Assembly: GCA_963758275.1 (NCBI GenBank)
Contig: CAVWUW010000031.1
Span: forward strand, 183,745-247,744
Source of the DNA: Terriglobia bacterium
Lineage (GTDB): Bacteria > Acidobacteriota > Terriglobia > Terriglobales > Acidobacteriaceae
Direction: 5' to 3'
DNA: 64,000 nt
The position numbers were made by a program, and so were the translations under genes. Of the stretch, positions 2 through 28,926 are shown piece by piece. Under the pieces are notes generated by a model. It was not told the DNA's origin. It saw nothing but the letters and a program-made list of their open reading frames with translations, and did no database searches. The first letter of the stretch is position 1; each line of letters begins with the position of its first letter.

Positions 2-2602
2 CAGGCCGATTTGGATTATTGGAAAAAGCAGTTGGAGGCCGCACCAGAGATTTTGGAATTGCCGGCAGATTATTCCCGGCCGGACAAACCGAAGTTCGAT
101 GGAGCCGGTGAATATTTCGAACTAAACCAAACTGTAGTTAAAGGGCTCAAGGGCCTGGGCAGGCAAGCGGGAGCAACATTTTATATGTCAATGCTGGCGG
201 CCTACAGTGTGGTGCTGCATCGCTATAGCGGGCAAGATGAGGTTTTGATTGGGACGCCGGCAGCAAACCGCGAATACGAAGAATTGCACGGACTGATTGG
301 GTTGTTCGTCAACATGCTGGTGATCCGAGTGAATTTGAGCGGGAACCCCTCATTTCCGGAGTTGCTGAAACGGGTGCGGGATACGGCATTGGAAGCCTAT
401 GTACATCAGACTCTGCCCTTTGAGCTTCTGGTGGAAAAACTCAGGCCGGAGCGCAACCTGAATAGAAATCCGCTGTTTCAGGTGGCTTTCAGCTTTGTGG
501 GCAGCACGGCCGATGCCGAGGAGCGTTCAGTATCCTGGCCGCCATTCACCGAATTAAATAATTTCACCTTCAAGTTTGATATGGGAGCTATTGTTTTTCA
601 GGACTCGTCACGCTGTCGAATAAACCTCGGCTATAACCCGGAACTGTTCAGCCGGGACACATGCACTCGTTTCAAACAGCATTTTCACAACTTGCTCGGC
701 GAGATCGTCGCCGACCCGCAGGCGGGAATATCAACCCTTCCCATGCTTCTGTCCGAAGAGCGGCAGATCACGTGTGACTGGCAGAACACCCAGACGGAAT
801 ATCCCCGAGAAAAACGAATCGAAGAGATCTTCCAGGCGCAGGTGGAAAAAGCACCCAATGCCCCAGCCTTGCTGTATCACTCGACGACATTTACTTATCA
901 GGAACTGGATGATGCTGCCGGCCGTGTTGGGCGATACTTGCGCCAACTGGGTGTTGGTGCCGAAACGGTAGTTGGCGTATGCATGGAGCGGTCCTGGCAA
1001 CTGGTAGTGTCTTTACTCGGGGTCTTGAAAGCGGGAGGGGCATATCTGCCGCTGGATCCAGGCTATCCGACGGCGCGATTGCAGTTCATGCTGGAGGACA
1101 GCAAAGCTAGGGTGGTCTTGATGCAAACGCCCCTGATGGACACCTTGCCTTGGCAGTCACTAGAGTGCTGCCGATTTGTAAGGTATGAAGACATAGTGGA
1201 AACAGCAGAAGGCTCGGCACCGCTTCATTCAACCCCGGACAACCTCGCCTACATCATTTATACGTCTGGATCCACCGGCGCGCCTAAGGGCATTGGAATT
1301 CCTCATCGTGCTGTAACTCGACTCGTATGCAATACAAATTATGTGGGGTCTGGGGCGAACGATCGGATTGCGCAGGCTTCCAATCCCTCTTTTGACGCGG
1401 CAACATTTGAGATTTGGGGGAGCCTGCTGAACGGCGGCTGTGTTGCAGGAGTAAGCAGGGAAGAATCGCTTACTCCGAAGTTACTGGCCTCTCGAATCCG
1501 AGAAAGCAAGATGACTACCATGTTTCTTACGACCGCTCTGTTCAATCAATTTGCGGCGAGCGACGAAGCAGACGCGTTGGGGGAGCTGAAGTACCTGCTG
1601 TTCGGCGGAGAGGCCGTGGATCCAAAGTGGGTTCAAGAAGTACTCAAGCATTTTCCACCGAGAAACCTGTTGCATGTGTATGGTCCCACCGAGAATACAA
1701 CCTTCTCTACATGGCGGCGGGTTCAGTCTGTGCCCTCTGGAAGCACAACCGTGTCCATTGGTGCGCCAATCGCGAACACGGAGATCTATGTCCTGGATAA
1801 GAATATGATGCATGTGGCTACCGGCGTGACAGGAGAACTTTACGTGGGAGGAGATGGACTGGCGAGAGGTTATGTAAACCGGCCGGAACTTACTGCTGAA
1901 AAATTTCTTCCGAACCCGTTCGGTCTTCGCGGCTCAGAGCGGCTGTACCGTACCGGCGACCTAGTGAAATACAGGAGTGACGGCAACATTGAGTTTATCG
2001 GGCGTGCGGACCAGCAGGTGAAGATTCGCGGTTTTCGAATTGAACCGGGTGAGGTCGAATCGGTTCTGCGAAAACACGCGAAAGTCAGAGACAGCATAGT
2101 ACTGGTGAAAGATTATGAAGGAGACAAACGCCTGATCGCTTACGCGGCGGTGGAAAAAGGGGCTGAGAGACGGGACCTGCGACAGTATCTGAAAGACCGA
2201 TTTCCGGACTACATGGTTCCCTCAAAGCTGGTGCTGCTGCAAGAGTTACCACTGACTGAAAACGGAAAGGTTGACCGGCAAAAGTTGATCGACGGAACTA
2301 CCACGGACGACGATGAGGAGCAGCAAGAACAGCAGTATGTCGCGCCACGTAATCAACTGGAACGAACGATTGCGGAGATATGGAGCGACATGCTGGGAAC
2401 CGAGAAAGTGGGGGTCTACGACAATATTTTCGACCTTGGCGGACATTCGTTGCTCCTCATGGCGATCCATGCGCGCATGAAAAGACAAGTACCGCATGCA
2501 GTCCACCTATCAGTAAAAGATTTGTTTCTTTATCCCACAATCGATTCTCTAGTCGACTTTATGGGCCAGGAAGAAAGTGAAAGCGCATTTCTTCAACGCT
2601 GA
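2..2602 (+). CDS. Non-ribosomal peptide synthetase, 5' end outside the window: (partial C)-A-T
   Basis: The reading frame is open to the window edge. It shows C-domain C-terminal motifs (DYWKKQL, LPADYSRP). A-domain cores are LAYIIYTSGSTGAPKG, YGPTE, YRTGDL, GRADQQVKIRGFRIE and NGKVDR. The carrier motif is FDLGGHSLL (Ser codon 2447-2449). Confidence 0.95.
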   Translation, partial: QADLDYWKKQLEAAPEILELPADYSRPDKPKFDGAGEYFELNQTVVKGLKGLGRQAGATFYMSMLAAYSVVLHRYSGQDEVLIGTPAANREYEELHGLIGLFVNMLVIRVNLSGNPSFPELLKRVRDTALEAYVHQTLPFELLVEKLRPERNLNRNPLFQVAFSFVGSTADAEERSVSWPPFTELNNFTFKFDMGAIVFQDSSRCRINLGYNPELFSRDTCTRFKQHFHNLLGEIVADPQAGISTLPMLLSEERQITCDWQNTQTEYPREKRIEEIFQAQVEKAPNAPALLYHSTTFTYQELDDAAGRVGRYLRQLGVGAETVVGVCMERSWQLVVSLLGVLKAGGAYLPLDPGYPTARLQFMLEDSKARVVLMQTPLMDTLPWQSLECCRFVRYEDIVETAEGSAPLHSTPDNLAYIIYTSGSTGAPKGIGIPHRAVTRLVCNTNYVGSGANDRIAQASNPSFDAATFEIWGSLLNGGCVAGVSREESLTPKLLASRIRESKMTTMFLTTALFNQFAASDEADALGELKYLLFGGEAVDPKWVQEVLKHFPPRNLLHVYGPTENTTFSTWRRVQSVPSGSTTVSIGAPIANTEIYVLDKNMMHVATGVTGELYVGGDGLARGYVNRPELTAEKFLPNPFGLRGSERLYRTGDLVKYRSDGNIEFIGRADQQVKIRGFRIEPGEVESVLRKHAKVRDSIVLVKDYEGDKRLIAYAAVEKGAERRDLRQYLKDRFPDYMVPSKLVLLQELPLTENGKVDRQKLIDGTTTDDDEEQQEQQYVAPRNQLERTIAEIWSDMLGTEKVGVYDNIFDLGGHSLLLMAIHARMKRQVPHAVHLSVKDLFLYPTIDSLVDFMGQEESESAFLQR

Positions 2603-2684: not shown

Positions 2685-5600
2685 ATGGGAAATAATTCAA
2701 AAACAGAGCGGAATGCATCAGACGCAAAAGAGCAAAGCGCCCACGGGAGCCTTTCCTCGATAGCCCTACCCCGCCGTCCTGCTGGAGCACGAGTTCCCCT
2801 GTCATTCAGCCAAAGGCAACTGTGGTTTATTCAGCAAATGATACCGAACACTCCAGCCTACAACGTGCCTTGGGCGCTGAAGTTGGAGAGGGAGGTTGAT
2901 ATCACGGTCTTGCAGCGCGCGGCGAACGAGATCATCCGGCGACACGAGGCGTTGCGAACACGGTTTGGTGCGTCAGATGGGGAGCCGGTGCAGTTGATCG
3001 AGCCGGAGCTGCATATCACCATTGAACGAGAGGATCTGAGCGGCATTTCTGTCGAAGAGCGCCAGGGCATTCTGCGCAGAAGACTTGGGGAAGAAGGACG
3101 GAAACCATTCAAGCTGGAACGGCTACCCTTGCTCCGTATTCGCCTTTTCCAATTGGGTGGCGAGCAGGTGCTTCTCACAGTAGTTCATCACATCCTCTTC
3201 GACGGCTGGTCTCTTGAAATCTTTTACCGCGAACTTGAGGCGCTGTACACGGCTTATCGGCAAGGTGAAAGTTCTCCGCTTCCCGAGTTCTCCATCCAGT
3301 ACAGTGACTACGCTTATTGGCAAGCGGAGTCGTTAAGACAAGGTGAACTGGAAGAGGGCATCGAGTACTGGAAAAAGCAACTGACGGGAACCCCATGGAG
3401 TTTAGAACTGCCAGCGGATTATCCGCGACCCGTAACGCCGAGGTTCGAAGGTGCAAGTATTGACTTTGAGATAAGTGAACCAGTCACAAGATCGTTGAAA
3501 GAGTTGAGCCGCAAATCTGGTGTAACACTGTACATGACCCTCCTGGCGGCCTACGCCGTGTTGTTGCAACGATATACCCGCCAGGAACAGATACTGATTG
3601 GAACCCCTATCGCTAACCGCTCGTTGGAAGAGCTGCAGCGTCTGATCGGCTTCTTTGCCAACACGTTGGTGATGCGGGTGGACTTGAGAGGAAATGTCAG
3701 GTTCACGGAGCTGCTGAAGCGGGTCAGAGAAAGTGCATTGGGTGGATATGCCCATCAGGATGTGCCATTTGAGCTGCTGGTGGAGCGACTTAAGCCGGAA
3801 CGCAGCTTGAACCGCACCCCATTGTTCCAGACCATGTTTGTAATGCAGAGCAGTTCACATTTGAGTGGTGGGGGATTCTTAAGCGGATATGCGGTCAACA
3901 CGGACCTACCCGTTGCCAAATTCGATCTTTCACTTAGCATGAGAGAGCGACACGGGAAGTTGTCGGCAGAGTTTAATTACGACATCAGCCTGTTTGCCGC
4001 AGACACAATAAGAAGGCTTCAAAACAATTTCATTTTTCTTTTGGAAGAATTGTCCAAAGCCGGCCCGCTTCGTTTAAGTGATCTGACCTCTATGCTCTCG
4101 TCGGGAGAACGGGATGAGATCAGGCATTGGAACTCTACCGACGTTTGCTATGGAAGAGGAGAGCGCCTGCATGTTCTCTTCGAAAAGCAAGTTCAGGCCG
4201 CTCCGGAGCGGCTAGCGCTGGTTTGTGAACAGGGGAACCTGACATATCGTGAAGTCAATCGCCGTGCGAACCAACTTGCACATTACCTTCAGAAGCAGGG
4301 AGTCGGGCCAGAATTGTGCGTCGGCGTCTGCATGGAGCGATCATGGGAGATGGTGGTGGCACTTCTGGGAATTCTGAAAACGGGGGCTGCATATCTGCCC
4401 CTGGATCCGGAATATCCAACTGAGCGGCTGCACTGGATGCAGCACGATGCGCGCGTCAATGTGGTGCTGACACAAGAAAAGTTTTCTCACCGTCTCGACC
4501 GCAGCAAAGGAACCAGGGTGATCCCGCTGGACACGTCGTGGAGTTTTGTGTCGCAGGAACGGGACCACGACTGTTTGGCAAGCGTCAGTGGAGAAAACGT
4601 GGCTTATGTGATCTACACCTCCGGTTCCACCGGCAAGCCTAAAGGTGTAATGAACCGCCATCGCGGCATCTGCAACCGTCTTCTCTGGATGCAGCAAGCA
4701 TACCGACTCCATGAGAGCGACCGTATTCTTCAGAAGACGCCCTACAGCTTTGACGTTTCGGTGTGGGAATTCTTCTGGCCATTGATAGCCGGTGCCCGTC
4801 TTGTCATAGCAAGGCCCGGTGGTCATCGTGACAGCACATACTTGCGAGACGTCATTAAAAAGGAAGGGATCACTACAATTCACTTTGTGCCTTCCATGCT
4901 TAAGTCCATGCTGGAAGACGAAGGTTTGCGCGGCTGTCGAAGTCTCAGGAGCGTGATTTGCAGTGGAGAGGCCCTGGGCCTTGGCTTAAAAGAACAGTTT
5001 TACCGGCAATGCCAGGCTGGATTGCACAACTTGTATGGCCCCACAGAAGCTGCGGTTGATGTCACCTTCTGGGAATGTGAGCGGGAAACGACGCGTTCTG
5101 CCGTGCCTATCGGGAGGCCCATAAGCAATACGCAGATCTACCTGCTGGATCAGAATCTGATGGAAGTTCCGGTATTGGCAACCGCTGAGCTGTGCATCGG
5201 CGGCGAAGGTCTCTCAAGAGGCTATCTGAACAGACCGGATTTGACGGCAGAAAAATTCCTGCCCAATCCCTTTGGCGAGAAAGGTACCCGACTCTACCGC
5301 ACGGGCGACTTGGCCCGCTTTCTTAACGACGGCGCCGTCGAGTACCTGGGCCGCATGGATAATCAGGTGAAGGTCCGTGGCAATCGAATTGAACTTGGGG
5401 AAATCGAAGAGGTACTGAAGCAGCACGCGTTAGTTCAGGATGGCGCAGTCATAGCCCATGAAGAGACCGGCGGAGAGAAACGACTCATTGCCTACATAGC
5501 GACGAAAAAAGACGTCAGCGTGAGGGCGCAGGACCTGCGGGCCTATCTCAAAGATCGGCTTCCGGACTTCATGATACCGGGCGCCTTTGTATTTGTTGAG

Positions 5601-8600
5601 AAAATGCCACTGAGTTCAAACGGCAAGCTTGACCGCAAAGCCTTAACTCAACTCGAAGCTGCCCACTTGCAGGAGTCGCGGAGCTATATTGCCCCACGCA
5701 ACATACTCGAAGACAAAATTGCGCAGATATGGGCAAAGGTGTTGCAGGTCGAGCAAGTGGGCGTAGACGACCATTTTTTTGATCTTGGCGGCCACTCGTT
5801 GCGCTTGATGCAGGTCCACTCAGAACTCAAGCAGAAGCTGCAGATTGATATTCCCGTCATCGATCTATTCCGTGTTCCCACAGTATCAGCGCTTGCAAAC
5901 TACATAACCGCGGTTAAGGACGTTACAAAATCTGGTGAGCCTACGGCGAATTTTCGAACCCAAGCCGAAGATACTTCCATTGCTGTAATCGGCATGGCAG
6001 GGAGATTCCCGGGCGCCCGCAACATCGAGGAGTTCTGGGAAAATATCAAAAATGGAGTGGAATCAGTTTCATTCTTCTCTGATGAAGAACTTTCGGATGT
6101 GCCGGATGCCGTGCGGGGCGATCCAAACTTTGTAAAGGCCGCCGCAGTCCTGGAAGACGCTGACTTTTTCGATGCCGATTTCTTCGGGTTTCGACGTCGC
6201 GAAGCGGAAACAACGGACCCGCAGCAGCGGGTCTTTCTTGAATGCGCATGGGAAGTGCTGGAACGAGCAGGCTACGATTCAGAGCGCTATCCGGGAGCAA
6301 TCGGGGTGTTCGCCGGGATGGCCACAAGCAGCTATTGGTTCAATTTATGTAGAAATCCGGAAGTTCTGGAATCCGTGAACAGCTTTCAATTGACAATTGG
6401 CAATGACAAGGACCACCTGCCTCTACGGGTTTCCTATAAGCTGAACTTGAAAGGTCCGAGCATAAGCGTGCAGACCGCGTGCTCCAGTTCGCTGGTGGCG
6501 GTGCATTTGGCCTGCCAGAGCCTCCTGGATGGCGAATGCAAAATGGCCATGGCGGGTGGAGTTTCGATCAGGGCCGTACAAAAAACCGGCTATGTTTACC
6601 AGGAGGGTGGAATAAGCTCTCCTGATGGCCACTGTCGCGCATTTGATGCTGATGCCGCCGGCACGATATCGGGGAACGGAGCGGCAGTAGTGCTTCTTAA
6701 GAAGCTTAAGGATGCGATCGCCGACGGAGATCATATTCATGCGATCGTTGTGGGATCGGCTATTAATAATGATGGGGCATTCAAAATTGGGTATACGGCC
6801 CCCAGTATCGATGGCCAGGCCGATGTCATTGCGCGCGCCCAGGCCAGAGCAGGAGTTCCTGCCGATACCATTACCTATGTTGAAGCTCATGGAACGGCAA
6901 CCCCTCTGGGAGACCCAATTGAAGTGGCGGCGCTTACCCAGGCTTTCCGGTTGCAAACGAATAAGACACAATTCTGCGCCATCGGCTCAGTCAAAACTAA
7001 TATAGGCCACCTTGATGCAGCCGCCGGCATAGCCGGTTTTATCAAAGCGGTCTTGGCGCTTGAAAGCGGTTTGCTCCCGCCCAGCCTGAATTTCAGGAAG
7101 CCCAATCCGAAAATTGATTTCTGTGCGAGTCCCTTCTTCGTCAATTCGAGATTCCAGAAATGGGAATGCGCTTCCGGGCCGCGTCGGGCCGGGGTGAGCT
7201 CGTTCGGTATTGGCGGCACGAACGCTCACGCGGTTTTGGAAGAGGCTCCTCAGCAGGAACCCGACAACCGCGAGTCGCAACCGCAACTGTTGCTCCTTTC
7301 CTGCAGGAGTGACGCAGCTCTGCAAAAAACTACTCTCAAGTTAGCTGAGCATCTGAAAAGTCATCCGGAACAGTGCATCCTAGACGTGGCCTATACGTTG
7401 CAGGAGGGGCGCAGGGAATTCGCCTTCCGTCGGGCAATTCTTTGTCAAAGCAGTGCTGATGGCATAAGAGCAATGGAGTCTGGCGATACGCAGAGGATCA
7501 TCACTGGAAAGTCAGAAACAGCGTCTCTCCCAGTTTACTTCCTCTTCCCCGGCCAGGGCGCGCAGTATGTCAACATGACGCGTGGGCTATATGAATCCAT
7601 TCCTGTGTTTCGCCGGGAGGTGGACCGCTGTTCGGAAATTCTTCGGTTACAGCTGGGATTCCATCTGGAGACTCTGCTTTACCCTGGAGAAGGCAGCCCC
7701 GAAGATCTCGAAGAGAAAATGCGGCAGACGGCGAACGCGCAGCCTACTCTCTTTGTGATCGAGTATGCATTGGCATCCTTGTGGATGGAGTTGGGAATCC
7801 GGCCACAGGCGATGTTGGGCCATAGTCTGGGCGAGTATGTGGCTGCATGCATGGCGGGCGTGATGTCTCTGGAAGACGCTTTGCGGCTGGTAACCGTTCG
7901 TGGGCAGCTCATGCAAAACATGCCGCCAGGCGCAATGCTGACGGTTGCCATGCCACATCACAGGGTAGCCGAACTGTTGAGCAATCATAAAGATGTTGCT
8001 CTTGCGGCAGTCAACGCAGAGGAGTCATGCGTAGTCTCTGGATCCGAAGAAGCGATTGTCCGACTGGAAACACAACTCGTAGAGCAGGGTTTTGAACCGC
8101 AACGCCTCCGCACGTCGCATGCCTTCCACTCGCCAATGATGACGCCAGTGGCTGAGTCTCTCAGGCATGTGTTGACCGGGATCAAGTTCAAAAGCCCCTG
8201 CATCCCTTTTCTGTCGAACCTGACTGGCGGATGGATTACACCGGAACAAGCCTCCAGCGCAGAATATTGGATCAAACATCTGCTTCACACCGTGCGTTTT
8301 TCGGATAATCTGCGTCATTTGCTCAAGGAACCCGGCGGTACTTTGCTGGAAATGGGACCAGCCACTTTAACTGTCCTGGCCAAGAGATATCCTGAGCGAC
8401 GCTCGGAGACCAGGCTACTCGCGTCTATCAAATCGAGAGCAGAAAAGGAGTCTGAATACTTGTCATTCCTGCACTCCGTGGGAACATTGTGGGCTGATGG
8501 CAGGCAGCTTCTCTGGCACATTTTGCCGCGTCACGGGAAGTGCAAGCGGGTGATACTGCCTACCTATCCGTTTGAAAGGCAGCGATACAACGTTCCTATA

Positions 8601-8840
8601 CCGGCACAGACGATACAAAGTTCAGTTACTGAGAGCACGGCCGAAAGTGCGCCTGGCCCGACATTCTTCGGGAATGTCGAGGCAGCTTTCATCGCAACCT
8701 GCAAGCCCCGCGCCCAGTGCGGGGACAATGGAAAGTGGCAAGACGAACAAGCCTCAACTCTTTCTGCCCAACAATTAGTGCTTCAACAGCTTGATGTTGT
8801 AGCCAGGCAGTTGGAGTTACTGCGTAAACGCGTTCCATAA
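2685..8840 (+). CDS. Hybrid NRPS-PKS: C-A(Ser-like)-T-KS-AT(malonyl-type), with no ACP in this polypeptide
   Basis: C motif HHILFDGWS lies at 3186-3206. A cores are AYVIYTSGSTGKPKG, YGPTE and NGKLDR. PCP motif is FFDLGGHSL (Ser 5796-5798). KS motifs are TACSSS (Cys 6480-6482), EAHGTATPLGDP and NIGHLDAAAG. AT motifs are GHSLGEY (Ser 7824-7826) and HAFH (8118-8129). The post-AT motif YPFERQRY is followed by a helical tail, and no GxDS carrier motif occurs after the AT. Confidence 0.95.
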   Translation: MGNNSKTERNASDAKEQSAHGSLSSIALPRRPAGARVPLSFSQRQLWFIQQMIPNTPAYNVPWALKLEREVDITVLQRAANEIIRRHEALRTRFGASDGEPVQLIEPELHITIEREDLSGISVEERQGILRRRLGEEGRKPFKLERLPLLRIRLFQLGGEQVLLTVVHHILFDGWSLEIFYRELEALYTAYRQGESSPLPEFSIQYSDYAYWQAESLRQGELEEGIEYWKKQLTGTPWSLELPADYPRPVTPRFEGASIDFEISEPVTRSLKELSRKSGVTLYMTLLAAYAVLLQRYTRQEQILIGTPIANRSLEELQRLIGFFANTLVMRVDLRGNVRFTELLKRVRESALGGYAHQDVPFELLVERLKPERSLNRTPLFQTMFVMQSSSHLSGGGFLSGYAVNTDLPVAKFDLSLSMRERHGKLSAEFNYDISLFAADTIRRLQNNFIFLLEELSKAGPLRLSDLTSMLSSGERDEIRHWNSTDVCYGRGERLHVLFEKQVQAAPERLALVCEQGNLTYREVNRRANQLAHYLQKQGVGPELCVGVCMERSWEMVVALLGILKTGAAYLPLDPEYPTERLHWMQHDARVNVVLTQEKFSHRLDRSKGTRVIPLDTSWSFVSQERDHDCLASVSGENVAYVIYTSGSTGKPKGVMNRHRGICNRLLWMQQAYRLHESDRILQKTPYSFDVSVWEFFWPLIAGARLVIARPGGHRDSTYLRDVIKKEGITTIHFVPSMLKSMLEDEGLRGCRSLRSVICSGEALGLGLKEQFYRQCQAGLHNLYGPTEAAVDVTFWECERETTRSAVPIGRPISNTQIYLLDQNLMEVPVLATAELCIGGEGLSRGYLNRPDLTAEKFLPNPFGEKGTRLYRTGDLARFLNDGAVEYLGRMDNQVKVRGNRIELGEIEEVLKQHALVQDGAVIAHEETGGEKRLIAYIATKKDVSVRAQDLRAYLKDRLPDFMIPGAFVFVEKMPLSSNGKLDRKALTQLEAAHLQESRSYIAPRNILEDKIAQIWAKVLQVEQVGVDDHFFDLGGHSLRLMQVHSELKQKLQIDIPVIDLFRVPTVSALANYITAVKDVTKSGEPTANFRTQAEDTSIAVIGMAGRFPGARNIEEFWENIKNGVESVSFFSDEELSDVPDAVRGDPNFVKAAAVLEDADFFDADFFGFRRREAETTDPQQRVFLECAWEVLERAGYDSERYPGAIGVFAGMATSSYWFNLCRNPEVLESVNSFQLTIGNDKDHLPLRVSYKLNLKGPSISVQTACSSSLVAVHLACQSLLDGECKMAMAGGVSIRAVQKTGYVYQEGGISSPDGHCRAFDADAAGTISGNGAAVVLLKKLKDAIADGDHIHAIVVGSAINNDGAFKIGYTAPSIDGQADVIARAQARAGVPADTITYVEAHGTATPLGDPIEVAALTQAFRLQTNKTQFCAIGSVKTNIGHLDAAAGIAGFIKAVLALESGLLPPSLNFRKPNPKIDFCASPFFVNSRFQKWECASGPRRAGVSSFGIGGTNAHAVLEEAPQQEPDNRESQPQLLLLSCRSDAALQKTTLKLAEHLKSHPEQCILDVAYTLQEGRREFAFRRAILCQSSADGIRAMESGDTQRIITGKSETASLPVYFLFPGQGAQYVNMTRGLYESIPVFRREVDRCSEILRLQLGFHLETLLYPGEGSPEDLEEKMRQTANAQPTLFVIEYALASLWMELGIRPQAMLGHSLGEYVAACMAGVMSLEDALRLVTVRGQLMQNMPPGAMLTVAMPHHRVAELLSNHKDVALAAVNAEESCVVSGSEEAIVRLETQLVEQGFEPQRLRTSHAFHSPMMTPVAESLRHVLTGIKFKSPCIPFLSNLTGGWITPEQASSAEYWIKHLLHTVRFSDNLRHLLKEPGGTLLEMGPATLTVLAKRYPERRSETRLLASIKSRAEKESEYLSFLHSVGTLWADGRQLLWHILPRHGKCKRVILPTYPFERQRYNVPIPAQTIQSSVTESTAESAPGPTFFGNVEAAFIATCKPRAQCGDNGKWQDEQASTLSAQQLVLQQLDVVARQLELLRKRVP
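5970..7250 (+). other. Ketosynthase domain (Cys-His-His present)
   Basis: Runs from IAVIGMAGRFPGA to GTNAHAVLEEAP and carries the active-site motifs TACSSS, HGTATPLGD and GHLDAAAG. Confidence 0.9.
7533..8390 (+). other. Acyltransferase domain, malonyl-CoA-type motif
   Basis: Motifs FPGQGAQY, GHSLGEY and HAFH are present. HAFH is the malonyl-type signature; the methylmalonyl-type is YASH. Confidence 0.85.
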
Positions 8841-8914
8841 TCCCTCAATACGTACTTTCCCAAGATCTCGAACGATCAATCACGCCGTCATGGTTGGCAA
8901 GGAGTTGCATCTGT

Positions 8915-11900
8915 ATGTCATCAACAGCTTCTAGTCGGCTGCAAGATCCGGGCCGGAAGCAGCGGATCACGAGCGCTTTGACCCAAATGCTCGCGAAACT
9001 CTTCGGCAAGAATGCCGCAGAGTTGGATGTCAACGCGTCCATGATTGATCTGGGCGGCGATTCTCTGTTTTTTTTGCAGGCATCGAACGCAATTCGAGAA
9101 AACTTTAACATCAAGATTCCATTCAGGCTCCTGCTGGAAGAACTGTCAACGATCGATAGTCTGGCTGATCATCTTGACCAGAAGCTTACTCCTGATGCTG
9201 TGGCCGGTATCGCGGAGAGTTCCAGTTCTCCGATCCAGGTTCAATCCCTGGCTGCGGAGCTGGCTTTGAGTCCGGTAGTACCCGTGGCGCAGGAGCAGGT
9301 TGTGAGTCAGCGGATCAAACAATCTATTGTTGCGCAGCAAATGGATGCCGGGAGCCAGGCAACGAATGCTAACGCAGAGGGAGATCCCATCTATCAAATA
9401 TTTGCCCAGCAACTGGCGCTCATGTCGCAACAAATTGCCATCCTTACAGGCCAGCCTAATACAAGCGCGCAACATCTTCGGAGTCCTCAGCCTTCTTTGG
9501 GCTCCGGGGTGCAACCATCTTTACCGCTTCTCGCTTTGGCTCAAGCACAACTGTCCCCGGTTGGGGCGGCTTCGTCCAGAGACGAAGTTAACCTGCGTTC
9601 CTCTTCAGAAATCGAACCTGAGGTTTATGTCCCCTATGAGGCGATTCAGCCTGAGGCCGCAAAATCTTTGACAGAGCAGCAGCGAAAATATCTTGCAGGC
9701 TTGATTGAGCGCATTAATCGCTGTACGGGAGAGTCCAAGCGGATTACTCAGGAATATCGGAAGTACCACGCGGACAACCGAACTGCCGCAGGCTTCAGAA
9801 TGCCCTGGAAGGAGATGTTCTATCCCCTGGTCGTGGAGCGGGGGCAAGGGTCCCACATATGGGACGTGGATGGAAATGAATATATCGACATGACCATGGG
9901 CTTTGGCGCGCTGCTGTTTGGGCACTCCCCGAAGTTCATTATGGATACGCTGGCAAAGCAGTTGGACCTCGGCATCAGGCTGGGACCGCACTCCAGAGAA
10001 GCAGGAGAAGCCGCGCATCTCATCTGTGAGATGACTGGCGTGGATCGCGTTGCTTTCTGCAACTCCGGAACTGAAGCGATCATGACTGCGCTACGTTTGG
10101 CGCGCACTGTTACCGGCCGCTCCAAGATTGCTCTCTTTGAAGGGTGTTATCACGGCACCTTCGATGGGATCCTCGTGAAAGGGGAAAGAAAGCCGGATGG
10201 AAGCCTACAAGCTATTCCTCTGGCGCCGGGTGTGCCTGGGCACATGATCGAGAACGTGCTCATGCTCAAGTATGACGATCCTCAGTCTCTGGAAATCTTG
10301 AGAGCGCGCGCCGGCGAGCTTGCTGCGATCCTGATTGAGCCTCCAAGGAGCCGCCGGCCGGATGTGCAACCCAGGGAGTTCCTGCTTGAACTGCGCCGTA
10401 TCAGCGAGACCTCAGGAGCTGCTCTCATTTTTGACGAGGTCGTCACCGGATTCCGTTTCCATCCAGGCGGGGCGCAAGCCCTGTTCGGAATTCGCGCCGA
10501 TCTGGTTACCTACGGGAAGGCGCTTGGAGGGGGGCTGCCCGTCGCCGCGGTTGCGGGGAAATCCAAGTTCATGGATGCGGTGGATGGCGGGATGTGGCAG
10601 TACGGAGATGGGTCTTATCCGGAATCAGAGATCACGTTCTCCACCGGAACCTATTTCAAGCATCCGCTGATCATGCCCGCTGTGGTTGCCGCTCTCAAGT
10701 ACATCAAGGAGAGCGGTTTCCAGTTGCAGGAATCACTCAACGCAAAGGCCAAATATGCAGCCGACGAGTTGGACGCCTTCTTCAAAGCCAAAGCCTTTCC
10801 TTTGAGAGTTGCACAAATCGGATCTCTATTCCGCCTCCTTCACGGCCCTGAACTGCGATACATGGACCTTTTCTACTATCACCTCCTGGAGAAGGGGATC
10901 TATGTTTGCGAGACTCATAACTGTCTGGTTTCCACTGCTCACAGTGACTCTGATATGGAAGTAATGATCCGGGCAGCGAAGGAGAGCTTGCTTGAGATGC
11001 GAGAAGAAGGATTCCTACCCGCTACTTCTTTGACATCCACAGGCTCCCCTGCGCATCGGGCAAATGGCACCGGTCCTACCGGCACGAGCACCCCTATCCG
11101 GGTGCCCTTGACGGAAGCGCAACGCCAGATCTGGGCTGTATCGCACATGGGAGAAGGAGACTCGCGTGCTTACAACCTGCCTCTTGCGGTTCAATGGCGG
11201 GGTGAATTAGACGTTCCACTGCTCCGGAAAGTGATTAACCATGTGGTCGAACGGCATGAGGCATTCCGCGCGACGTTCAGCTCTGATGGTGACTTCCAAA
11301 CGATATCGCCGACGACGATTGAGGTTCCCCTGGTGGACCTTTCCGGCCTGAAACCGGAAGAACAGCAGGCCCAGGCGGAACAGTGGCGCACGTTGGACGC
11401 GACCCGGGTGTTTGATTTCGTCTCCGGACCGCTATTGAGCCTGCGATTGCTCAAGTTCAAATCGGATCTGCATACCCTTCTGATTACGATGCACCATATC
11501 ATCAGCGACGGGTGGTCCCTGGGCATGTTCATCAACGAAATGCAGCAAATCTATTGCGCTGAACTGGGTGGAACAAGCCTGGAACTAGCTCCACCCAAGT
11601 CTTTTGCTGAATATGCAACGCACAAGGCACAGCAGGAAAGCCAACTGGCCAATTCTGAGGCAGAGAGGTTCTGGCTCACTGAATTTCCGAATTCGATTCC
11701 TCCGCAGCGTCTGCCTGCCGATGCTCTGGGGCAGGGAGAATCCGGAATTCTTGGAACCCAGAAAAGGCTGGTCATGACATCCACGGCAATGACCGAATTG
11801 AAAGAGATCAGCCGGCGGTACAGTTGCACGAGTTTCATGGTCTTTTTGGCCGTCTGCAAAATCTTTATTTACTACCTGACCAAACAGGAAGAGGTAGTCA

Positions 11901-12502
11901 TCGGAGTTCCGACCGCCGGACAGAGCCTTCCCGATGGCGGATATCTCGCGGGTTGCTGCGTCAACCTGCTTGCATTCCGCACACACATGAACGCCGAGTT
12001 GAGCTTCCCGCAACTGGTGGTCATGTTGCGGCAGAAACTCGTGAAAGCTTATGAACATGAGGATTATCCGTTCAATCTCCTTTTGAAGCGCTTGCGAACC
12101 ATGCACCCGCAGCGGCCTGAGCCCGCCATTTCGGTGATTTTCAACCTCGACCGGGCGCAAACCAAGAAGAAGCGCGAAGACTTTGACCTGACCGTGATGA
12201 CCAATCACAATCAAACTTCAAAGTTCGATTTGACTGTGGATGTGACTGAAACGCAAGACTCTCTCATCATTGACTTCGAATATAAGAGCAATCTGTTTAC
12301 CAGTGAGCGGATCACCTGCTGGATGGGGCTGTTCGAGAAACTCATCCAGGAAATCAGCAAGCGCCCGGCCCAGACCATCCGCGACTACTTTGCTGTTTTA
12401 CAGGAAGAAGAAGCCCGCCAGAATGCTCTGGCTGCACAGGAACTCAATCGCCAGGAATACCAAAGGTTTGCAGCCAGCAGACGTAAAGTCGTTGCAAGCT
12501 AA
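8915..12502 (+). CDS. ACP - PLP-dependent class-III aminotransferase (AMT) domain - C domain protein
   Basis: ATG 8915 lies downstream of AAGGAG; the ORF track offers TTG 8894 as an alternative start. ACP motif is DLGGDSLFF (Ser 9062-9064), followed by a Q/S/P-rich linker. The GSA-aminotransferase-like core shows GFGALLFGH, FCNSGTEA, IFDEVVTGFR and TYGKALGGG (Lys codon 10517-10519). The C domain carries HHIISDGWS (11492-11512). Confidence 0.9.
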   Translation: MSSTASSRLQDPGRKQRITSALTQMLAKLFGKNAAELDVNASMIDLGGDSLFFLQASNAIRENFNIKIPFRLLLEELSTIDSLADHLDQKLTPDAVAGIAESSSSPIQVQSLAAELALSPVVPVAQEQVVSQRIKQSIVAQQMDAGSQATNANAEGDPIYQIFAQQLALMSQQIAILTGQPNTSAQHLRSPQPSLGSGVQPSLPLLALAQAQLSPVGAASSRDEVNLRSSSEIEPEVYVPYEAIQPEAAKSLTEQQRKYLAGLIERINRCTGESKRITQEYRKYHADNRTAAGFRMPWKEMFYPLVVERGQGSHIWDVDGNEYIDMTMGFGALLFGHSPKFIMDTLAKQLDLGIRLGPHSREAGEAAHLICEMTGVDRVAFCNSGTEAIMTALRLARTVTGRSKIALFEGCYHGTFDGILVKGERKPDGSLQAIPLAPGVPGHMIENVLMLKYDDPQSLEILRARAGELAAILIEPPRSRRPDVQPREFLLELRRISETSGAALIFDEVVTGFRFHPGGAQALFGIRADLVTYGKALGGGLPVAAVAGKSKFMDAVDGGMWQYGDGSYPESEITFSTGTYFKHPLIMPAVVAALKYIKESGFQLQESLNAKAKYAADELDAFFKAKAFPLRVAQIGSLFRLLHGPELRYMDLFYYHLLEKGIYVCETHNCLVSTAHSDSDMEVMIRAAKESLLEMREEGFLPATSLTSTGSPAHRANGTGPTGTSTPIRVPLTEAQRQIWAVSHMGEGDSRAYNLPLAVQWRGELDVPLLRKVINHVVERHEAFRATFSSDGDFQTISPTTIEVPLVDLSGLKPEEQQAQAEQWRTLDATRVFDFVSGPLLSLRLLKFKSDLHTLLITMHHIISDGWSLGMFINEMQQIYCAELGGTSLELAPPKSFAEYATHKAQQESQLANSEAERFWLTEFPNSIPPQRLPADALGQGESGILGTQKRLVMTSTAMTELKEISRRYSCTSFMVFLAVCKIFIYYLTKQEEVVIGVPTAGQSLPDGGYLAGCCVNLLAFRTHMNAELSFPQLVVMLRQKLVKAYEHEDYPFNLLLKRLRTMHPQRPEPAISVIFNLDRAQTKKKREDFDLTVMTNHNQTSKFDLTVDVTETQDSLIIDFEYKSNLFTSERITCWMGLFEKLIQEISKRPAQTIRDYFAVLQEEEARQNALAAQELNRQEYQRFAASRRKVVAS
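8960..9190 (+). other. ACP domain that completes the KS-AT module of the preceding protein
   Basis: LGGDSL carrier motif in a four-helix-sized segment at the N-terminus of the protein. Confidence 0.8.
9640..11010 (+). other. Aminotransferase (AMT) domain of the MycA/McyE type
   Basis: Class-III aminotransferase motifs with the putative PLP lysine in YGKALGGG. The domain sits between an ACP and a C domain. Confidence 0.8.
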
Positions 12503-12514
12503 GGAGCAATAATT

Positions 12515-13565
12515 ATGAGTCAGTCAGAAAGCGCCGTGCGGGTGCGTTCCCCGTTTACCGCCCGCCGCAAGTCTGTGGGCAGTTTTTCTGAATGGACCAG
12601 GAAGAGCTATCTCCAGTCAGAAGATGGCCCGGTAGTGATTGCGGCTGTTGATGGACCTTGACCTGATGGCGTGGACCCAGCAGAATACGTCGTCGCTTAA
12701 AGACATGATCGAAAAACATGGGGCTGTGCTGCTGCGTGGCTTTGCTGTGAAGACGGTTGAGGCCTTCCGCAACTTCGTGCTGGCGCTATCCCCCAACATG
12801 CTGGAATACAAGGAGCGTTCTTCGCCCCGTCATAAAGTCCAGGCGGACATTTACACTTCCACCGACTACCCCGCCCATCAACGCATTTTCTTTCACAATG
12901 AGAATTCATATCAGTTCATATGGCCGATGAAGATATGCTTTTTTTGTTCCCTGCCGGCAGAGCACGGCGGAGAAACGCCCATCGCCGATGTTCGGAGGGT
13001 TTATCGGCGGTTATCGCCTAAGACGATCCAACGCTTCGAAGAAAAGTGCTGCATGTACGTACGAAACTTTGATGAGGCCCTGGGTCTTTCCTGGCAGGAA
13101 GTATTTCAGACCAGCGACCGGCTTCAGGTGGACGGGTACTGTAAAGATAACGGCATTACCTGTGAGTGGAAAGAAAACAACGGATTGCGCACCCGCGCAA
13201 TCCGTCCAGCAGTTGCGGTTCATCCCAGGACCGGTGAACGGGTGTGGTTCAACCACGTTGCGTTTTTCCACATCTCCACCTTGGATGCGTCGATACGCGA
13301 CGGACTGCTGGCGGCCATGCCTGAATCCGACTTGCCTGCCAATAGCTATTACGGAGATGGCTCTTCCGTTGAAGAGGATGTGATCGAGGAAATTCGCTCC
13401 GCCTATCGTAGTGAATCCGTCAGCTTCCCCTGGCAAAAGGGTGACATCCTTGCTGTTGACAACATGCTTACCGCGCATTCCCGCAATCCGTTCGTGGGAG
13501 AAAGAAAAATCCTGGTCGGGATGGCCGAACCTTATTCACGCCGGCAAGACCTGGAAGCTCTCTGA
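12515..13565 (+). pseudogene. TauD/TfdA-family (SyrP-like) Fe(II)/2-oxoglutarate amino-acid beta-hydroxylase, with its frame broken by an apparent 1-nt insertion near 12656
   Basis: ATG 12515 has a strong SD (AAGGAG). It encodes MSQSES...SYLQSEDGPVVIAAVDGP and then stops at 12659. The +1 frame continues as (L)DLMAWTQQ...KHGAVLLRGF...YKERSSPR...IYTSTDYPA...FFHNENSY (His 12894, Glu 12900). That sequence is typical of the NRPS-associated TauD clade, including the N-terminal extension. Skipping the C at 12656 restores ...AAVDGLDLMAW.... The ORF track only reports 12639-13565. Confidence 0.8.
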
Positions 13566-13604: not shown

Positions 13605-16600
13605 TTGAATACCCAAGTAATGGGAGGTTATCGCCTCTCTCCTCAGCAACAGCATTTATGGCGGCTGCAGGAAACGCATCTGGATTATCCGCATTCCGTT
13701 TCTGCGGTCCTGATGTTTGAAGAGGTCCTGGACGCCGTCCGCATTCAACGGGCACTTGTCAAGGTAATTGACCGTCATGAGATCCTTCGCACGGTATTTC
13801 GTCCATTGGGAGCGCTTCAATTCCCGGTGCAAGTGATCCGTCCTGATGCTGACGTATGGCTTCCAGCGGCAGATTCAAGTGAAGGTGTCGAAGCGAGCGA
13901 CTGGTCTTTGCAATTAGACAAGATTTACCGCGACTTCCGTGGCCGTACCTGGGATGTGCAAAATGGGCCCTTGATTCAGGCGCGCATTGTGAGCTTGCCA
14001 GCTTCGAGACAGGCAGTCCTGATCAGGCTTTCCAAATTTTGCTCAGACAAAGCCGGTTTGCGTAACGTAATTCTCCAGATGCTCCAGATTTATAAGGGGA
14101 GCACCTTACACGGGCCAGAGCAGCCTCCCCAATACGCTGATGTTTCAGAATACCTCAATGAAGTGCTTGAATTAGAAGATACCGCCGTGGGACGGCAATT
14201 TTGGAACCGGTGGAGAGCTGAGCTGCTTCCACCGCTTCGGCTGGCTACTCATCCGGTCAGTGATGACGAGACAGATGAAGGCTGCTTGCGTTGGAATCTT
14301 GATTTCGAGACAGTGGCCAGGGTAGAAGAATTGGCTGCTCACACGGGAACGGCTGTCACGGACATTGTCATGGCAGGGTGGCAAGTTGTGCTTGCCCGTT
14401 CCTTGCGACAGGAAGAGTTCACTCTGGGAATCGTATGCAGCGGCAGACGACTAGAAGGTCTGGAGAACACTCCAGGATTATTTGAGAGGACACTCCCCTT
14501 ACCCTGCCGTATCACCCGCGAACAACCCTTCAAAGAACTCGTCCGGCACGTGGCCAGGAACACCGAGCAGCTCGCGCAGTGGCAGGATTACTTCAGTTAT
14601 GGGGCTATCGGCGAAAACACCACAGCGCCTATCGCTTTTGAATACTGTGCATTACCACCGCTGCCTGCAGATGATCTTACAATCGCGGCATTCACGATTG
14701 ATGAAAGTTTGTATCCGCATCAGCTCAAGCTGTCGTGCTTCTGGAATGTCAAATCACCCTTGCTTCAAATCTCATACCAACACGGTGCTTTGTCTGAGAG
14801 GGACGTCGCTGCGCTCGGCGACCAGTTGAGCGCTCTCCTGTTGAATGCGGCAGCATCTCCATCGGCCCCTGCCGGAAAACTCTCAACCCTCAGCCCCGCC
14901 GCAAAAGATTTCTTGTTGCACCAGCTGAATAGGACAGAGGTCATGTACTCAAGCGTGCCTTTTACCCACGCGCGCTTTGAATTGCAGGCGCGCCAGAGTC
15001 CAGCCCAGCCAGCCCTAGTTGCAGGCGAAATGACTCTCACGTATGGGGAACTTGATGAGAGGGCCACGCGCTTGGCTGATGTCCTCAAATCACGTGGCAT
15101 AGGGCCGGAGAGCGCCGTGGTTGTCTCTATGGAACGCTGCCCGGAGTTGCTCATTTCACTCTTGGGGATTCTGAAATCGGGAGGCTTTTATATTCCACTT
15201 GATCCGGGGTATCCAGCCGAGCGCCTCGCATTTGTGCTGCGGGACAGCAGGGCAGCGTTGGTGTTAAGCAAAGCGGAGTGGAATTCCCGGTTCGCAGCCA
15301 GTCAAGTACCAATTCTCAACCTTGATGATGACTGGATGCGGGAAGAAGTGAGCGGTAATACCAAAGCAAAGTTACATCCCCATAATCTGGCCTACACAAT
15401 TTATACATCCGGATCCACAGGCCAGCCAAAGGGCGTTGCCGTCAGCCATGCTGCGTTGGCGAACTATCTGAGCTGGTGCGAGCAAAAGTATGATTTGGCC
15501 AAAGGTCGCGGCGTAATTGTGCATTCACCCATAGGGTTCGATCTCACAGTTACAACCCTGCTCGCGCCGCTCTCGGCGGGACAAACGATCATTCTGGTTG
15601 AGGGGGAAGACCCAACGGAGGGCCTGGCCCGCTTGTTACGTAGGGATGCGCACTTGACGTTACTAAAAATTACGCCGGCACATTTACAGGCGCTCAGTCA
15701 GATGCTCGATCCGAAGGAACTTTCAGGGGCAGTGGATACCGTAATCATTGGCGGCGAGGCGCTTCTCAGTAATCATGTCGGAACCTGGCAAGTCGAATCG
15801 CCTCAAACGCGCCTGATCAACGAATATGGTCCCACTGAAACCACGGTGGGCTGCAGCATCTACGAGATGCCGCGGTCTTCTCTTACTAGCGGGCCGGTTC
15901 CAATCGGCAAACCCATCGCGAACGCGAAGCTCTATGTTTTCGATGCTGAAATGCAGCCTTTGCCAATCAAGTCTGTGGGTGAGTTGTATGTCGGTGGTGT
16001 CGGCCTGGCCAGGGGCTACCTCGGGCAGCCTGCCCTCACGGCAGAAAGATTTTTGCCGCATCCCTTCTCCACCAGCCCGGGTGGACGGTTATACAAGACC
16101 GGGGACATGGCCCAAGTCGATGCCGATGGCACGCTGCATTTTCTGGGGCGAGCAGACGATCAGATCAAGCTCCGCGGTTACCGCATCGAACTGGGAGAAA
16201 TCGAATACATTCTTCGGCAACATCCTGGCGTTCGTGAAGCGGCGGTCGTTCTCAAGGACTGCGGAGATCAAAAGCAGCTTGTCGCTTATGTTGCGCTCAC
16301 AAAGCCTGTTGCGGTCACAAAGCCCGGCCAACCTGCGATTGCCGGTCTGCAGAACTTCCTCCTGAATAAGTTGCCGGAATACATGGTCCCCACGCAGATG
16401 ATTGTGCTTGATCAGTTGCCTCTCACTTTTCACGGCAAGGTTGATAAGCGTTCTCTGCCAGGTCCCAACTTGCAGTCGAGCAACTTACAGCCCAAATATG
16501 TTGCTCCCCGCAACGCGAAGGAGCAAATACTGGCCGATCTCTGGGCCAGGGCCCTGGGCCTGGAGCGTGTAGGGGTTCGTGACAATTTCTTTGAACTCGG

Positions 16601-27850: not shown

Positions 27851-27930
27851 GCTCGGCTGCAGCAGGCAAATCAGTCCTTCTCACACATTCAGGAAAGGCC
27901 ATTGCCGTCTTGCTGCCGATTAGACTAATC

Positions 27931-28926
27931 ATGTACGAAAATATTATCGATACCATTGGAAATACTCCGCTAGTACGGCTGAACCGCATTATTCCTGAAA
28001 ACAAATTTCGCCTTTTTGCGAAGTTTGAAGCGGCCAATCCCGGCGGCAGCCTTAAGGACCGGCCGGCCGCTTACATCATCCGGGAAGCGCTCAAAGCAGG
28101 CATTATCAGTCCGAACAGCACAATCATTGAATCCAGTTCGGGGAACATGGGTATCGGCCTTGCGCAGGTTTGCGCTTACCACAAACTTAAGTTTATTTGT
28201 GTCATTGATTCCAAAACCACGCTGCAGAATCGTGCCGTTCTGAAAGCCTATGGAGCTGAAATTGATCTCGTCGCCAATCCCGATCCTACTACCGGCGAGT
28301 TCCTGCCTAGTCGCCTGAAGAGAGTCGCTGAGCTGCTGCAAATCATTCCAGAGAGCTTTTGGCCAGACCAGTACTCGAACTTGAGTAATGCGAGGGCGCA
28401 CTATCGCACGATGGATGAAATCGCGACAGCGCTGGAGGCCCGAATCGATCATATTTTCTGCGCCACCAGCACATGCGGAACACTGCGGGGTTGCAGCACC
28501 TTTATCCGCGAGCAGGGGCTCGCCACCCGCATCTGGGCGGTAGATGCAGTAGGCAGCGTATTGTTTGGCGGCCCCTCTGCGCGCAGGCTCATTCCGGGAC
28601 ATGGAGCCTCTGTGGTTCCCCGCTTGTACCACCCCGGCTGTGAAGACCGGCATGTTCATGTAACCGATCTCGACTGCGTTCTGGGTTGCCGCCGCCTAGT
28701 GGCCAGAGAAGCGATCCTGGCTGGCGGGTCTTCAGGCGCAATCGTGGCCGCCATTGACAAGGTGCAGAGCCAATTGAAAGACAACTGCACATGCGTTGCA
28801 ATTCTGCCCGATCGCGGTGAGCGCTACCTGGACACAATTTATTCTGATGAATGGGTCGAACAACATTTTGGCGATGTTCTTAAGCAAGGATCAAAGGAGC
28901 CATCATGGGCGTCAATGACATACTGA
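27931..28926 (+). CDS. sbnA: SbnA-type PLP enzyme (N-(2-amino-2-carboxyethyl)-L-glutamate synthase; first step to L-2,3-diaminopropionate)
   Basis: The start MYENIIDTIGNTPLVRL is followed by NPGGSLKDRPA and SSGNMG. The C-terminal ILPDRGERYLDTIYSDEWV closely parallels my recollection of S. aureus SbnA (ILPDRGDRYLDLVYSDTWL). The ORF-track start at 27910 is probably too early. Confidence 0.88.
   Translation: MYENIIDTIGNTPLVRLNRIIPENKFRLFAKFEAANPGGSLKDRPAAYIIREALKAGIISPNSTIIESSSGNMGIGLAQVCAYHKLKFICVIDSKTTLQNRAVLKAYGAEIDLVANPDPTTGEFLPSRLKRVAELLQIIPESFWPDQYSNLSNARAHYRTMDEIATALEARIDHIFCATSTCGTLRGCSTFIREQGLATRIWAVDAVGSVLFGGPSARRLIPGHGASVVPRLYHPGCEDRHVHVTDLDCVLGCRRLVAREAILAGGSSGAIVAAIDKVQSQLKDNCTCVAILPDRGERYLDTIYSDEWVEQHFGDVLKQGSKEPSWASMTY

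Follow-up and report, generated by a model that had tools for sequence, protein, structure and literature searches.

The plus strand of the window, i.e. the whole 64,000-nucleotide stretch of Terriglobia bacterium contig CAVWUW010000031.1 analysed here, carries a long cluster of nonribosomal peptide synthetase (NRPS) genes together with polyketide synthase (PKS) genes. Two adjacent genes of this cluster, ORF2 and ORF3, together encode a PKS module that is divided between its acyltransferase (AT) and its acyl carrier protein (ACP) and that contains an embedded aminotransferase (AMT) domain. The coordinates of the genes, domains, and motifs are listed in Table 1.

ORF2 showed Pfam matches to Condensation (C; residues 37-475), AMP-binding (adenylation, A; residues 499-848, followed by AMP-binding_C), PP-binding (peptidyl carrier, T; residues 1010-1074), ketosynthase (KS; residues 1098-1470), the KS-AT linker, and Acyl_transf_1 (residues 1619-1892). 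The order C-A-T-KS-AT and the carrier-less tail bearing YPFERQRY and QQLVLQQLDVVARQLELLRKRVP, which had been proposed in the initial annotation, were borne out by Pfam and the translation. The tail length of about 140 aa given there holds when counted from the end of the Pfam AT match, and the part beyond YPFERQRY comprises only 83 aa. This motif completes the KS-AT didomain, since the alignments with KS-AT structures in the PDB end there or shortly past it; the best PDB matches of the KS were also KS-AT didomains. The AT motifs GHSLGE and HAFH are those of malonyl-CoA specificity. The A-domain code extracted by motif anchoring, DVWHISLVD(K), is Ser-like and is identical in an orthologue (L002), with a partial read of DVWH??LVD in a second one (L001). 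A cryptic ACP in the ORF2 tail, which would have contradicted the annotation, was ruled out, because no PP-binding match was obtained there even at E values up to 10 and no GxDS motif occurs. Neither ORF2 nor ORF3 contains a ketoreductase (KR), dehydratase (DH), enoyl reductase (ER), or methyltransferase (MT) family in Pfam, as had been stated.

The ATG at 8915 is more likely to be the start of ORF3 than the mechanically assigned TTG at 8894, because AAGGAG is located 10 nt upstream of it (8899-8904); a database protein (P0001) with 100% identity to ORF3 over 1195 aa begins at the same ATG. Pfam matches to PP-binding, Aminotran_3 (E 1.7e-52), and Condensation (E 1.5e-85) agreed with the earlier description of an ACP-first protein with a class-III aminotransferase and a C domain. 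Counted from ATG 8915, the coordinates given there for the ACP serine (9062) and the lysine binding pyridoxal phosphate (PLP; 10517-10519) were also correct. These residues, Ser50 and Lys535, were invariant in an 11-sequence alignment of homologues (alignment A1), as were D507 (the Asp of FDEV), G385-T386, and NSGTEA of the AMT and H860, H861, D865, and G866 of the C domain. The AMT motifs FCNSGTEA, FDEVV, and TYGK were read from the translation. No promoter-like or terminator-like site was found in the 74-nt gap between ORF2 and ORF3.

The AMT domain aligned with the crystal structures of the MycA AMT (6KFM, 6KFR, and 6KFU) at 496 bits (E 9e-148, ca. 50% identity) and with glutamate-1-semialdehyde (GSA) aminomutases at no more than 212 bits, and its TYGK lysine motif was aligned with TYGK of MycA. 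MycA-type AMTs have an N-terminal extension of about 50-65 aa without a counterpart in GSA aminomutases. Such an extension is present here, as indicated by the alignment to 6KFM beginning at query residue 17 and the alignments to GSA aminomutases beginning at residues 67-69. In a neighbor-joining (NJ) tree of 44 domains, comprising embedded AMTs and stand-alone enzymes and calculated from our own distance matrix, the embedded AMTs, including those of the iturin-type Bacillus loci L006, L007, and L017, were separated from the stand-alone enzymes in 100 of 100 bootstraps, and the window AMT formed one group with those of L001-L003 with the same support. In addition, the ACP of a non-reducing KS module immediately precedes the domain, and a C domain follows it. 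Both intact PLP residues and a grouping with MycA rather than with GSA aminomutases had been expected from the initial annotation. These sequence comparisons indicate that the domain is an embedded aminotransferase of the MycA type, and by analogy it is predicted to transaminate the ACP-bound beta-keto thioester.

The break between AT and ACP was retained in the homologous loci, where the gap at the ORF2/ORF3 junction varies from 8 to 244 nt and its position is kept. L001 (69% identity) and L002 (50%) are orthologous clusters in which the whole gene order is kept along with the break. In seven more distant loci (L003, L083, L084, L085, L086, L089, and L090), an NRPS C-A-T likewise leads into KS-AT, a stop, and ACP-AMT; the hosts include Pyrinomonadaceae (L003 and L083), Blastocatellia (L084), and Nostoc punctiforme (L086), the last with the arrangement C-A-T / KS-AT / ACP-AMT-C-A-T. 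All 10 NRPS-primed single-extension AMT loci examined, from Acidobacteriota to Nostoc, are split at this point. The A-domain code ahead of the KS varies among them, being Ser-like in the window and L002 (and in the partial read of L001), Ala-like in L083, and Tyr-like in L085. Among the 120 best ORF3 homologues, the ACP forms the start of the protein in at least 85, the total being about 85-110, a KS or AT lies upstream of it in only 7, and the rest are mostly ACP-first Nostoc proteins, as judged from Pfam strings. On the other hand, a coarse survey of domain orders showed that systems primed by a fatty acyl-AMP ligase (FAAL) are mostly fused or, in Bacillus, have a separate AT gene. From these comparisons, the break is the norm in this family, contrary to the earlier view that it is uncommon, and is not an assembly artefact. 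The split layout is common in uncultured bacteria.

In L089 (10965-14315) and L090 (6837-13652), which are NRPS-primed and split, a luciferase-like monooxygenase (Ox) domain follows the AMT (ACP-AMT-Ox). The AMT-Ox pair in FAAL-primed pathways leads to 3-amino-2-hydroxy acids; in these two loci it would act on an amino-acid-derived chain.

The two proteins share a helix. The ORF2 C-terminal residues 2029-2051 (nt 8769-8837) are QQLVLQQLDVVARQLELLRKRVP, and the Q, Q, L, and L of this helix are invariant in alignment A3. ORF3 has a helix after the ACP, about 210 residues ahead of FCNSGTEA, with the consensus QQLxLMSQQLExL, of which Q165, Q166, M170, Q173, and L177 are invariant in alignment A1. 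A strict regular expression for this post-ACP helix matched 64 of 96 homologues; the helix occurs in most embedded AMT modules, fused ones too, and its motif is also borne by the C-termini of the KS-AT proteins in split systems. A hidden Markov model (HMM) of 59 post-ACP helices, from which the window protein was excluded, matched the extreme C-termini of KS-AT proteins in five loci (i-E 2e-8 to 2e-3). Reciprocally, when an HMM of 12 KS-AT tails, again with the window excluded, was used in a six-frame search of the whole window, exactly two matches were obtained, one at ORF2 residues 2028-2050 and one at the post-ACP helix of ORF3, both with 18.0 bits (i-E 2e-4). Among the 120 closest KS-AT homologues, the C-terminal helix was found in 14 of the 15 that end past the post-AT linker and in 1 of the 97 longer PKS homologues with an ACP in cis. 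Furthermore, no such helix between AT and ACP was present in six fused KS-AT-ACP-AMT-C proteins. In AlphaFold2 (AF2) models, a disordered spacer followed by a helix at 927-958 was seen in the 961-aa ORF2 query, and ORF3 showed an isolated helix at 158-178 with disorder on either side; the mean predicted confidence (pLDDT) of 55.5 for KS-AT-tail and 59.6 for ORF3 supports the isolated-helix picture only.

The initial annotation had the ORF2 tail docking on the ORF3 N-terminus. This seems doubtful, since the tail matches the post-ACP helix and the N-terminus consists of about 11-15 aa before ACP helix I (which starts at residue 12 in the AF2 model), with no conserved column in alignment A1. The layout is also not that of a classical intermodular docking pair, the ORF2 helix following an AT and the ORF3 N-terminus being short and unconserved. 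The likely docking partner of the tail, from the sequence matches, is the post-ACP helix. The AMT domain is obligately dimeric, and the two helices would associate beside it; the tethered ORF2 helix and the helix between the ACP and AMT of ORF3 may form a helical bundle there.

A variant order, KS-AT-C ahead of ACP-AMT-C, was observed in L084 (5668-10008) and in protein P0321 (1446 and 1410 aa, respectively). In P0321, the helix motif is kept between the AT and the C-like domain (residues 909-934).

Taken together, ORF2 and ORF3 rather probably constitute one hybrid NRPS-PKS elongation step with MycA-type amination, divided over two polypeptides that bear matching helices. The motifs are intact in the KS, in the malonyl-type AT, in the ACP, and in the C domain downstream, so that collinear logic leads to extension of a peptidyl-Ser chain by C2, a beta-keto intermediate, and then a beta-amine. 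ORF1 would supply the peptidyl chain to ORF2, whose C-A-T portion would add the Ser-like residue. The KS would accept the peptidyl-seryl chain, the AT would load malonate onto the ACP at the start of the separate protein ORF3, and decarboxylative condensation would give a gamma-(acylamino)-beta-keto thioester on this ACP. The adjacent MycA-type PLP domain would convert the beta-keto group to a beta-amine, and the ORF3 C domain would join the chain to the Asn/Asp-like residue on ORF4. By collinearity, the unit built would be 3-amino-4-(acylamino)-5-hydroxypentanoyl. We infer the Ser substrate, a product of beta,gamma-diamino type, the amino donor, and a physical contact between the helices. Glutamine may be the donor by analogy with MycA, for which it is cited in PMC3870968. 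The beta-amine could stay free, become part of a heterocycle, or, as in iturins, act as the nucleophile that closes a macrolactam. In the literature searched, the coverage of which was incomplete and which therefore does not prove absence, nothing relevant was found on a beta,gamma- or vicinal diamine made by an embedded AMT or on guadinomine, and no paper on an embedded AMT acting on an amino-acid-derived beta-keto chain.

Several observations weigh against this interpretation. The HMM of post-ACP helices gave only 5.4 bits (i-E 1.7) on the ORF2 tail, significance being reached only with the tail-derived HMM; the pLDDT of both helices is low (35-58); and when the similarity of each tail to the helix of its own partner was ranked among its similarities to those of the other partners, the ranks were mixed (7, 8, 2, 1, 6, 1, 2, and 1 of 8). 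The relationship between priming and splitting has counterexamples in both directions, L022 being NRPS-primed yet fused (with two KSs) and L025 (Burkholderia) being FAAL-primed in appearance yet split, and the survey of split and fused loci, which were gathered by similarity, is small and biased. The Ser-like code was extracted by motif anchoring and not by a trained predictor, and the cluster encodes 2,3-diaminopropionate (Dap) synthesis, so that Ser and Dap loading are both possible. Finally, the source organism is uncultured.

Three alternatives concern the architecture itself. The split might be a sequencing or assembly frameshift, or the mark of a pseudogene, in what is really one protein; the source is a metagenome-type assembly, and an oligopeptide-transporter (OPT) gene in the same window does look frame-split. 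Against this, independent assemblies of different phyla have a stop, an 8- to 244-nt gap, and a restart at this very junction, a ribosome binding site lies ahead of ATG 8915, and the ORF2 tail has the conserved split-specific helix, which fused proteins lack; the probability of such an error is practically negligible. It is also scarcely credible that the class-III domain is a recruited GSA aminomutase of primary metabolism, or an inactive remnant, rather than a beta-keto aminotransferase. Many homologues are annotated as "glutamate-1-semialdehyde aminotransferase" in databases and the best NCBIfam names for the domain are those of GSA aminomutase families, but the HemL equivalog TIGR00713 gave 263.9 bits, below its cut-off of 527.3, the domain forms part of the 1195-aa ORF3, unlike stand-alone HemL (ca. 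430 aa), and the bit scores, the bootstrap separation, and the intact PLP residues described above all oppose it. A non-collinear order, in which the ORF2 KS-AT has a cognate carrier other than the ORF3 ACP and the AMT acts on a different acyl chain, would fit the lack of a recognisable N-terminal docking domain in ORF3 and the likewise unusual ORF3/ORF4 junction. However, a KS-AT gene lies immediately ahead of an ACP-AMT gene in ten loci across phyla, no other ACP is available to the ORF2 KS-AT, and the shared helix motif is specific to the ORF2/ORF3 junction; this order is considered very unlikely.

Two further alternatives leave the collinear step as it is and alter the product. The beta-amine might not remain free and might serve as the nucleophile of a macrolactamisation catalysed by a thioesterase (TE), which would close a small lariat ring comprising the last four residues, or might cyclise onto the neighbouring amide. 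The beta-amine is used for ring closure in the iturins made by MycA/ItuA-type systems, the closest characterised relatives are proteins of this type, a TE is present at the end of ORF5, and only three residues follow the AMT unit. As no sequence feature indicates the cyclisation nucleophile, and the Dap- or 2,4-diaminobutyrate (Dab)-like residues predicted for ORF5 also have side-chain amines, such a fate of the beta-amine is a possibility on the unlikely side. Loading of Dap instead of Ser by the ORF2 A domain, which would make the extended unit a triamine, appears improbable. Ser and Dap codes can be close, and the cluster contains SbnA and SbnB equivalogs; nevertheless, DVWHISLVD closely resembles classical Ser codes, and either A domain of ORF5 (DIWEITADD or DPADLGLIN) could take Dap.

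The acceptor side of the step is formed by ORF4, whose N-terminal C-like domain (13605-14960) has SKFCSDKAG in place of HHxxxDG and is followed by an A domain with an Asn/Asp-like code (DLTKIGEVG), a T domain, and an epimerization (E)-type domain (HHLSVDVVSW). Because the C-like domain lacks HHxxxDG and would be catalytically dead, the C domain of ORF3 is, from its motifs, taken as the working condensation catalyst for the ORF4 module. The ORF3 C-terminal helix, for which the block-mean pLDDT was mostly about 90 and dropped to 64 and then 41 at the end, might be a docking element for ORF4. A C-like domain without catalytic histidines, called the "interface" domain, is said to have been described by Reitz et al. 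in 2019 as acting with a stand-alone TauD-type beta-hydroxylase, and in the window the TauD gene adjoins the domain with the replaced HH motif. The TauD-family dioxygenase is probably a beta-hydroxylase for the ORF4 residue; a stand-alone hydroxylase gene before an E-containing Asp module is a known pattern for D-threo-beta-OH-Asp (PMC12628792). Loci without TauD nearby (L083, L084, L087, and L088) also have the HH-less domain after an AMT-C protein, because of which it may be a pseudo-C docking partner instead of, or besides, a hydroxylase interface; a role purely as a TauD interface domain was rejected on the same ground.

Every protein that follows one ending in AMT-C opens with such an HH-less domain, with or without TauD nearby; it starts at 13605 in the window, 14670 in L001, 14713 in L002, 14914 in L083, 13644 in L084, 13452 in L085, 16330 in L087, and 6550 in L088, and the replacement motifs include SKFCSDKAG, PAVCSDSAG, PSLCADKLS, and others. 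In L090, where one polypeptide holds the C domain along with its own A-T, the next protein opens with a normal HH-containing C domain. The HH-less domain could be a pseudo-C docking partner for a rare split between C and A.

The A-domain code of ORF1, read by eye, is approximately DAFFLGVTF (Ile/Val-like). In ORF5, the first code, DPADLGLIN, has an acidic residue at position 278 and matches no code known to us, and the second, DIWEITADD, resembles diamino-acid (Dab-type) codes. The SbnA- and SbnB-like genes suggest from their sequences that the cluster would make Dap; genes for an MFS transporter and a type-II thioesterase are also present. At the cluster edge are a flavin reductase (31146-31685) and a Trp-halogenase-family enzyme (31762-33366; E 2.6e-144), and the product may be halogenated; no Trp-type code was found among the modules inside the window. 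An IS630-like transposase gene with DDE_3 and HTH domains (33796-34863, minus strand) just past the halogenase gene may mark the cluster boundary. Farther on, the OPT gene is broken up into two neighbouring ORFs that differ in frame (43829-44695 and 44724-46106) and match profile positions 1-265 and 292-497, as a result of either a frameshift/pseudogene or a sequencing error. A 590-aa ORF (61484-63256, minus strand) matched no Pfam family at E values up to 1e-4.

The GC content of the window is about 54%, and its thioredoxin reductase shows 96%, 92%, and 88% identity to proteins from metagenome-assembled genomes of "Candidatus Angelobacter sp." Candidatus Angelobacter belongs to the Acidobacteriota, class Terriglobia. 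These identities speak against a Paenibacillus or a member of the Ktedonobacteria as the host and indicate that it is a relative of this soil acidobacterium, which has a GC content of about 55% and very large NRPS/PKS repertoires (PMC9723581).

Table 1. Genes, domains, and sequence elements of the split AMT module and the surrounding cluster.
Feature	Position (nt)	Strand	Basis or detail
ORF1, 3' part of upstream NRPS gene, (C)-A-T	2-2602	+	Pfam
ORF2, 2051 aa: C-A(Ser-like)-T-KS-AT, post-AT linker, spacer, terminal helix	2685-8840	+	Pfam, translation, motifs
ORF2 adenylation domain	4179-5627	+	Pfam; code DVWHISLVD(K)
ORF2 peptidyl carrier (T) domain, GGHSL, Ser codon 5796-5798	5712-5906	+	Pfam, motif
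ORF2 ketosynthase	5976-7094	+	Pfam; motifs TACSSS (6474-6491), HGTATP, NIGHL intact
ORF2 acyltransferase	7539-8360	+	Pfam; GHSLGE (7818-7835), HAFH (8118-8129)
YPFERQRY, end of post-AT linker, ORF2 residues 1961-1968	8565-8588	+	Motif position
ORF2 spacer, ca. 60 aa, poorly conserved, predicted disordered	8589-8765	+	AF2 pLDDT 24-30; no conserved column in A3
ORF2 C-terminal helix, (S)AQQLVLQQLDVVARQLELLRKRVP, candidate docking element	8766-8837	+	HMM, A3, AF2
ORF2-ORF3 intergenic gap, 74 nt	8841-8914	+	AAGGAG at 8899-8904
ORF3, 1195 aa from ATG 8915: ACP, helix, AMT, C, terminal helix	8915-12502	+	Pfam, homologue alignment
ORF3 ACP, LGGDSL, Ser50 codon 9062-9064	8975-9196	+	Profile, motif; AF2 pLDDT ca. 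80
ORF3 post-ACP helix, (Y)QIFAQQLALMSQQIAIL(T)	9380-9448	+	A1, regular expression, HMM, AF2
ORF3 AMT incl. N-terminal extension, PLP Lys535 codon 10517-10519	9668-11020	+	PDB match, NJ tree
ORF3 condensation domain, HHIISDG at 11492-11512	11102-12415	+	Pfam, motif
ORF3 C-terminal helix, predicted, ca. 40 aa, residues 1155-1194	12377-12496	+	AF2
Stand-alone TauD-family dioxygenase	12639-13565	+	Pfam; position kept in L001, L002
ORF4: HHxxxDG-less C-like, A, T, E	13605-18185	+	Pfam, motifs, A-code
ORF5: C-A-T-C-A-T-TE, last two modules and chain release	18178-25398	+	Pfam, motifs, A-codes
SbnA-like and SbnB-like genes	27910-28926 and 28905-29969	+	NCBIfam equivalogs above curated cut-offs

Beyond this locus, we tentatively propose that NRPS-primed AMT modules split between AT and ACP form a widespread class, found in Acidobacteriota (Candidatus Angelobacter, Pyrinomonadaceae, and Blastocatellia) and Nostoc, that installs beta,gamma-diamino residues derived from one malonate and an amino acid such as Ser, Ala, or Tyr, with a duplicated helix, the KS-AT tail helix pairing with the post-ACP one, joining its halves. 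Within an incomplete coverage of the literature, no characterised biosynthesis of a beta,gamma-diamino residue was found as a precedent. Should collinearity hold, peptides containing beta,gamma-diamino acids would be made by many soil Acidobacteria that are uncultured and by some Nostoc strains that can be cultured, and Nostoc punctiforme, which has the same arrangement, is a genetically tractable organism for testing the prediction. The split-specific helix is a mutable candidate for the element that keeps an in-trans ACP near the KS-AT, which would be useful in PKS engineering, and the duplicated helix could be a portable means of cutting a PKS module between AT and ACP. All the individual domains belong to known types and MycA chemistry would predict the step, so that the module extends a known logic without a new principle; what is new is that this logic is NRPS-primed and split within the module, with a split-specific helix.

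The iturin-family proteins MycA, ItuA, and BmyA share with ORF2/ORF3 the order ACP-AMT-C and the absence of KR, DH, and ER, and ORF3 shows 35-36% identity to the Bacillus proteins of L006 and L007 over ACP-AMT-C. A degenerate post-ACP helix is present in the Bacillus type, in which the AT is also not covalently joined to the ACP and is encoded by a separate upstream gene. In contrast, a fatty-acyl ligase (AL) and an ACP prime the Bacillus proteins (the former being the N-terminal AMP-binding domain of L006, with the layout AL-ACP-KS-ACP-AMT-C-A-T), whereas in ORF2 a C-A-T lies ahead of the KS. They carry the KS and ACP on one polypeptide and a C domain fused to its own A-T, whereas in the window breaks occur after the AT and, a second time, after the ORF3 C domain; a single polypeptide combining KS, ACP, AMT, C, A, and T, which defines the iturin type, does not occur there. 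The Bacillus product is a beta-amino fatty acid, and that predicted for the window is a beta,gamma-diamino acid. The puwainaphycin/microginin-type systems of cyanobacteria and proteobacteria, KS-AT-ACP-AMT(-Ox)-C (L005, L014, and L087), have the same domain set and an AMT of the same clade, and in L087 and L088 the protein after AMT-C also opens with an HH-less C-like domain. They differ in being FAAL-primed and fused at AT-ACP, with no helix between the two domains.

In McyE and NdaF, which act in the formation of Adda of microcystin and nodularin, an embedded AMT likewise turns a beta-keto thioester into a beta-amine; that module carries a polyketide chain and is not known to be divided between AT and ACP. 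BioA, the 7,8-diaminopelargonate synthase, is a class-III aminotransferase that gives a vicinal diamine from a ketone beside an amino-bearing carbon. It is a chemical analogue only, being free-standing, acting on a free acid with S-adenosylmethionine as the donor, and not being close to the AMT. Classical PKS docking domains (class 1 and class 2) are short terminal helices located after an ACP and before a KS, and are intermodular. The junction in the window differs from these in being intramodular, after the AT and before the ACP, and in that the partner helix is located inside ORF3, after the ACP, and not at the N-terminus.

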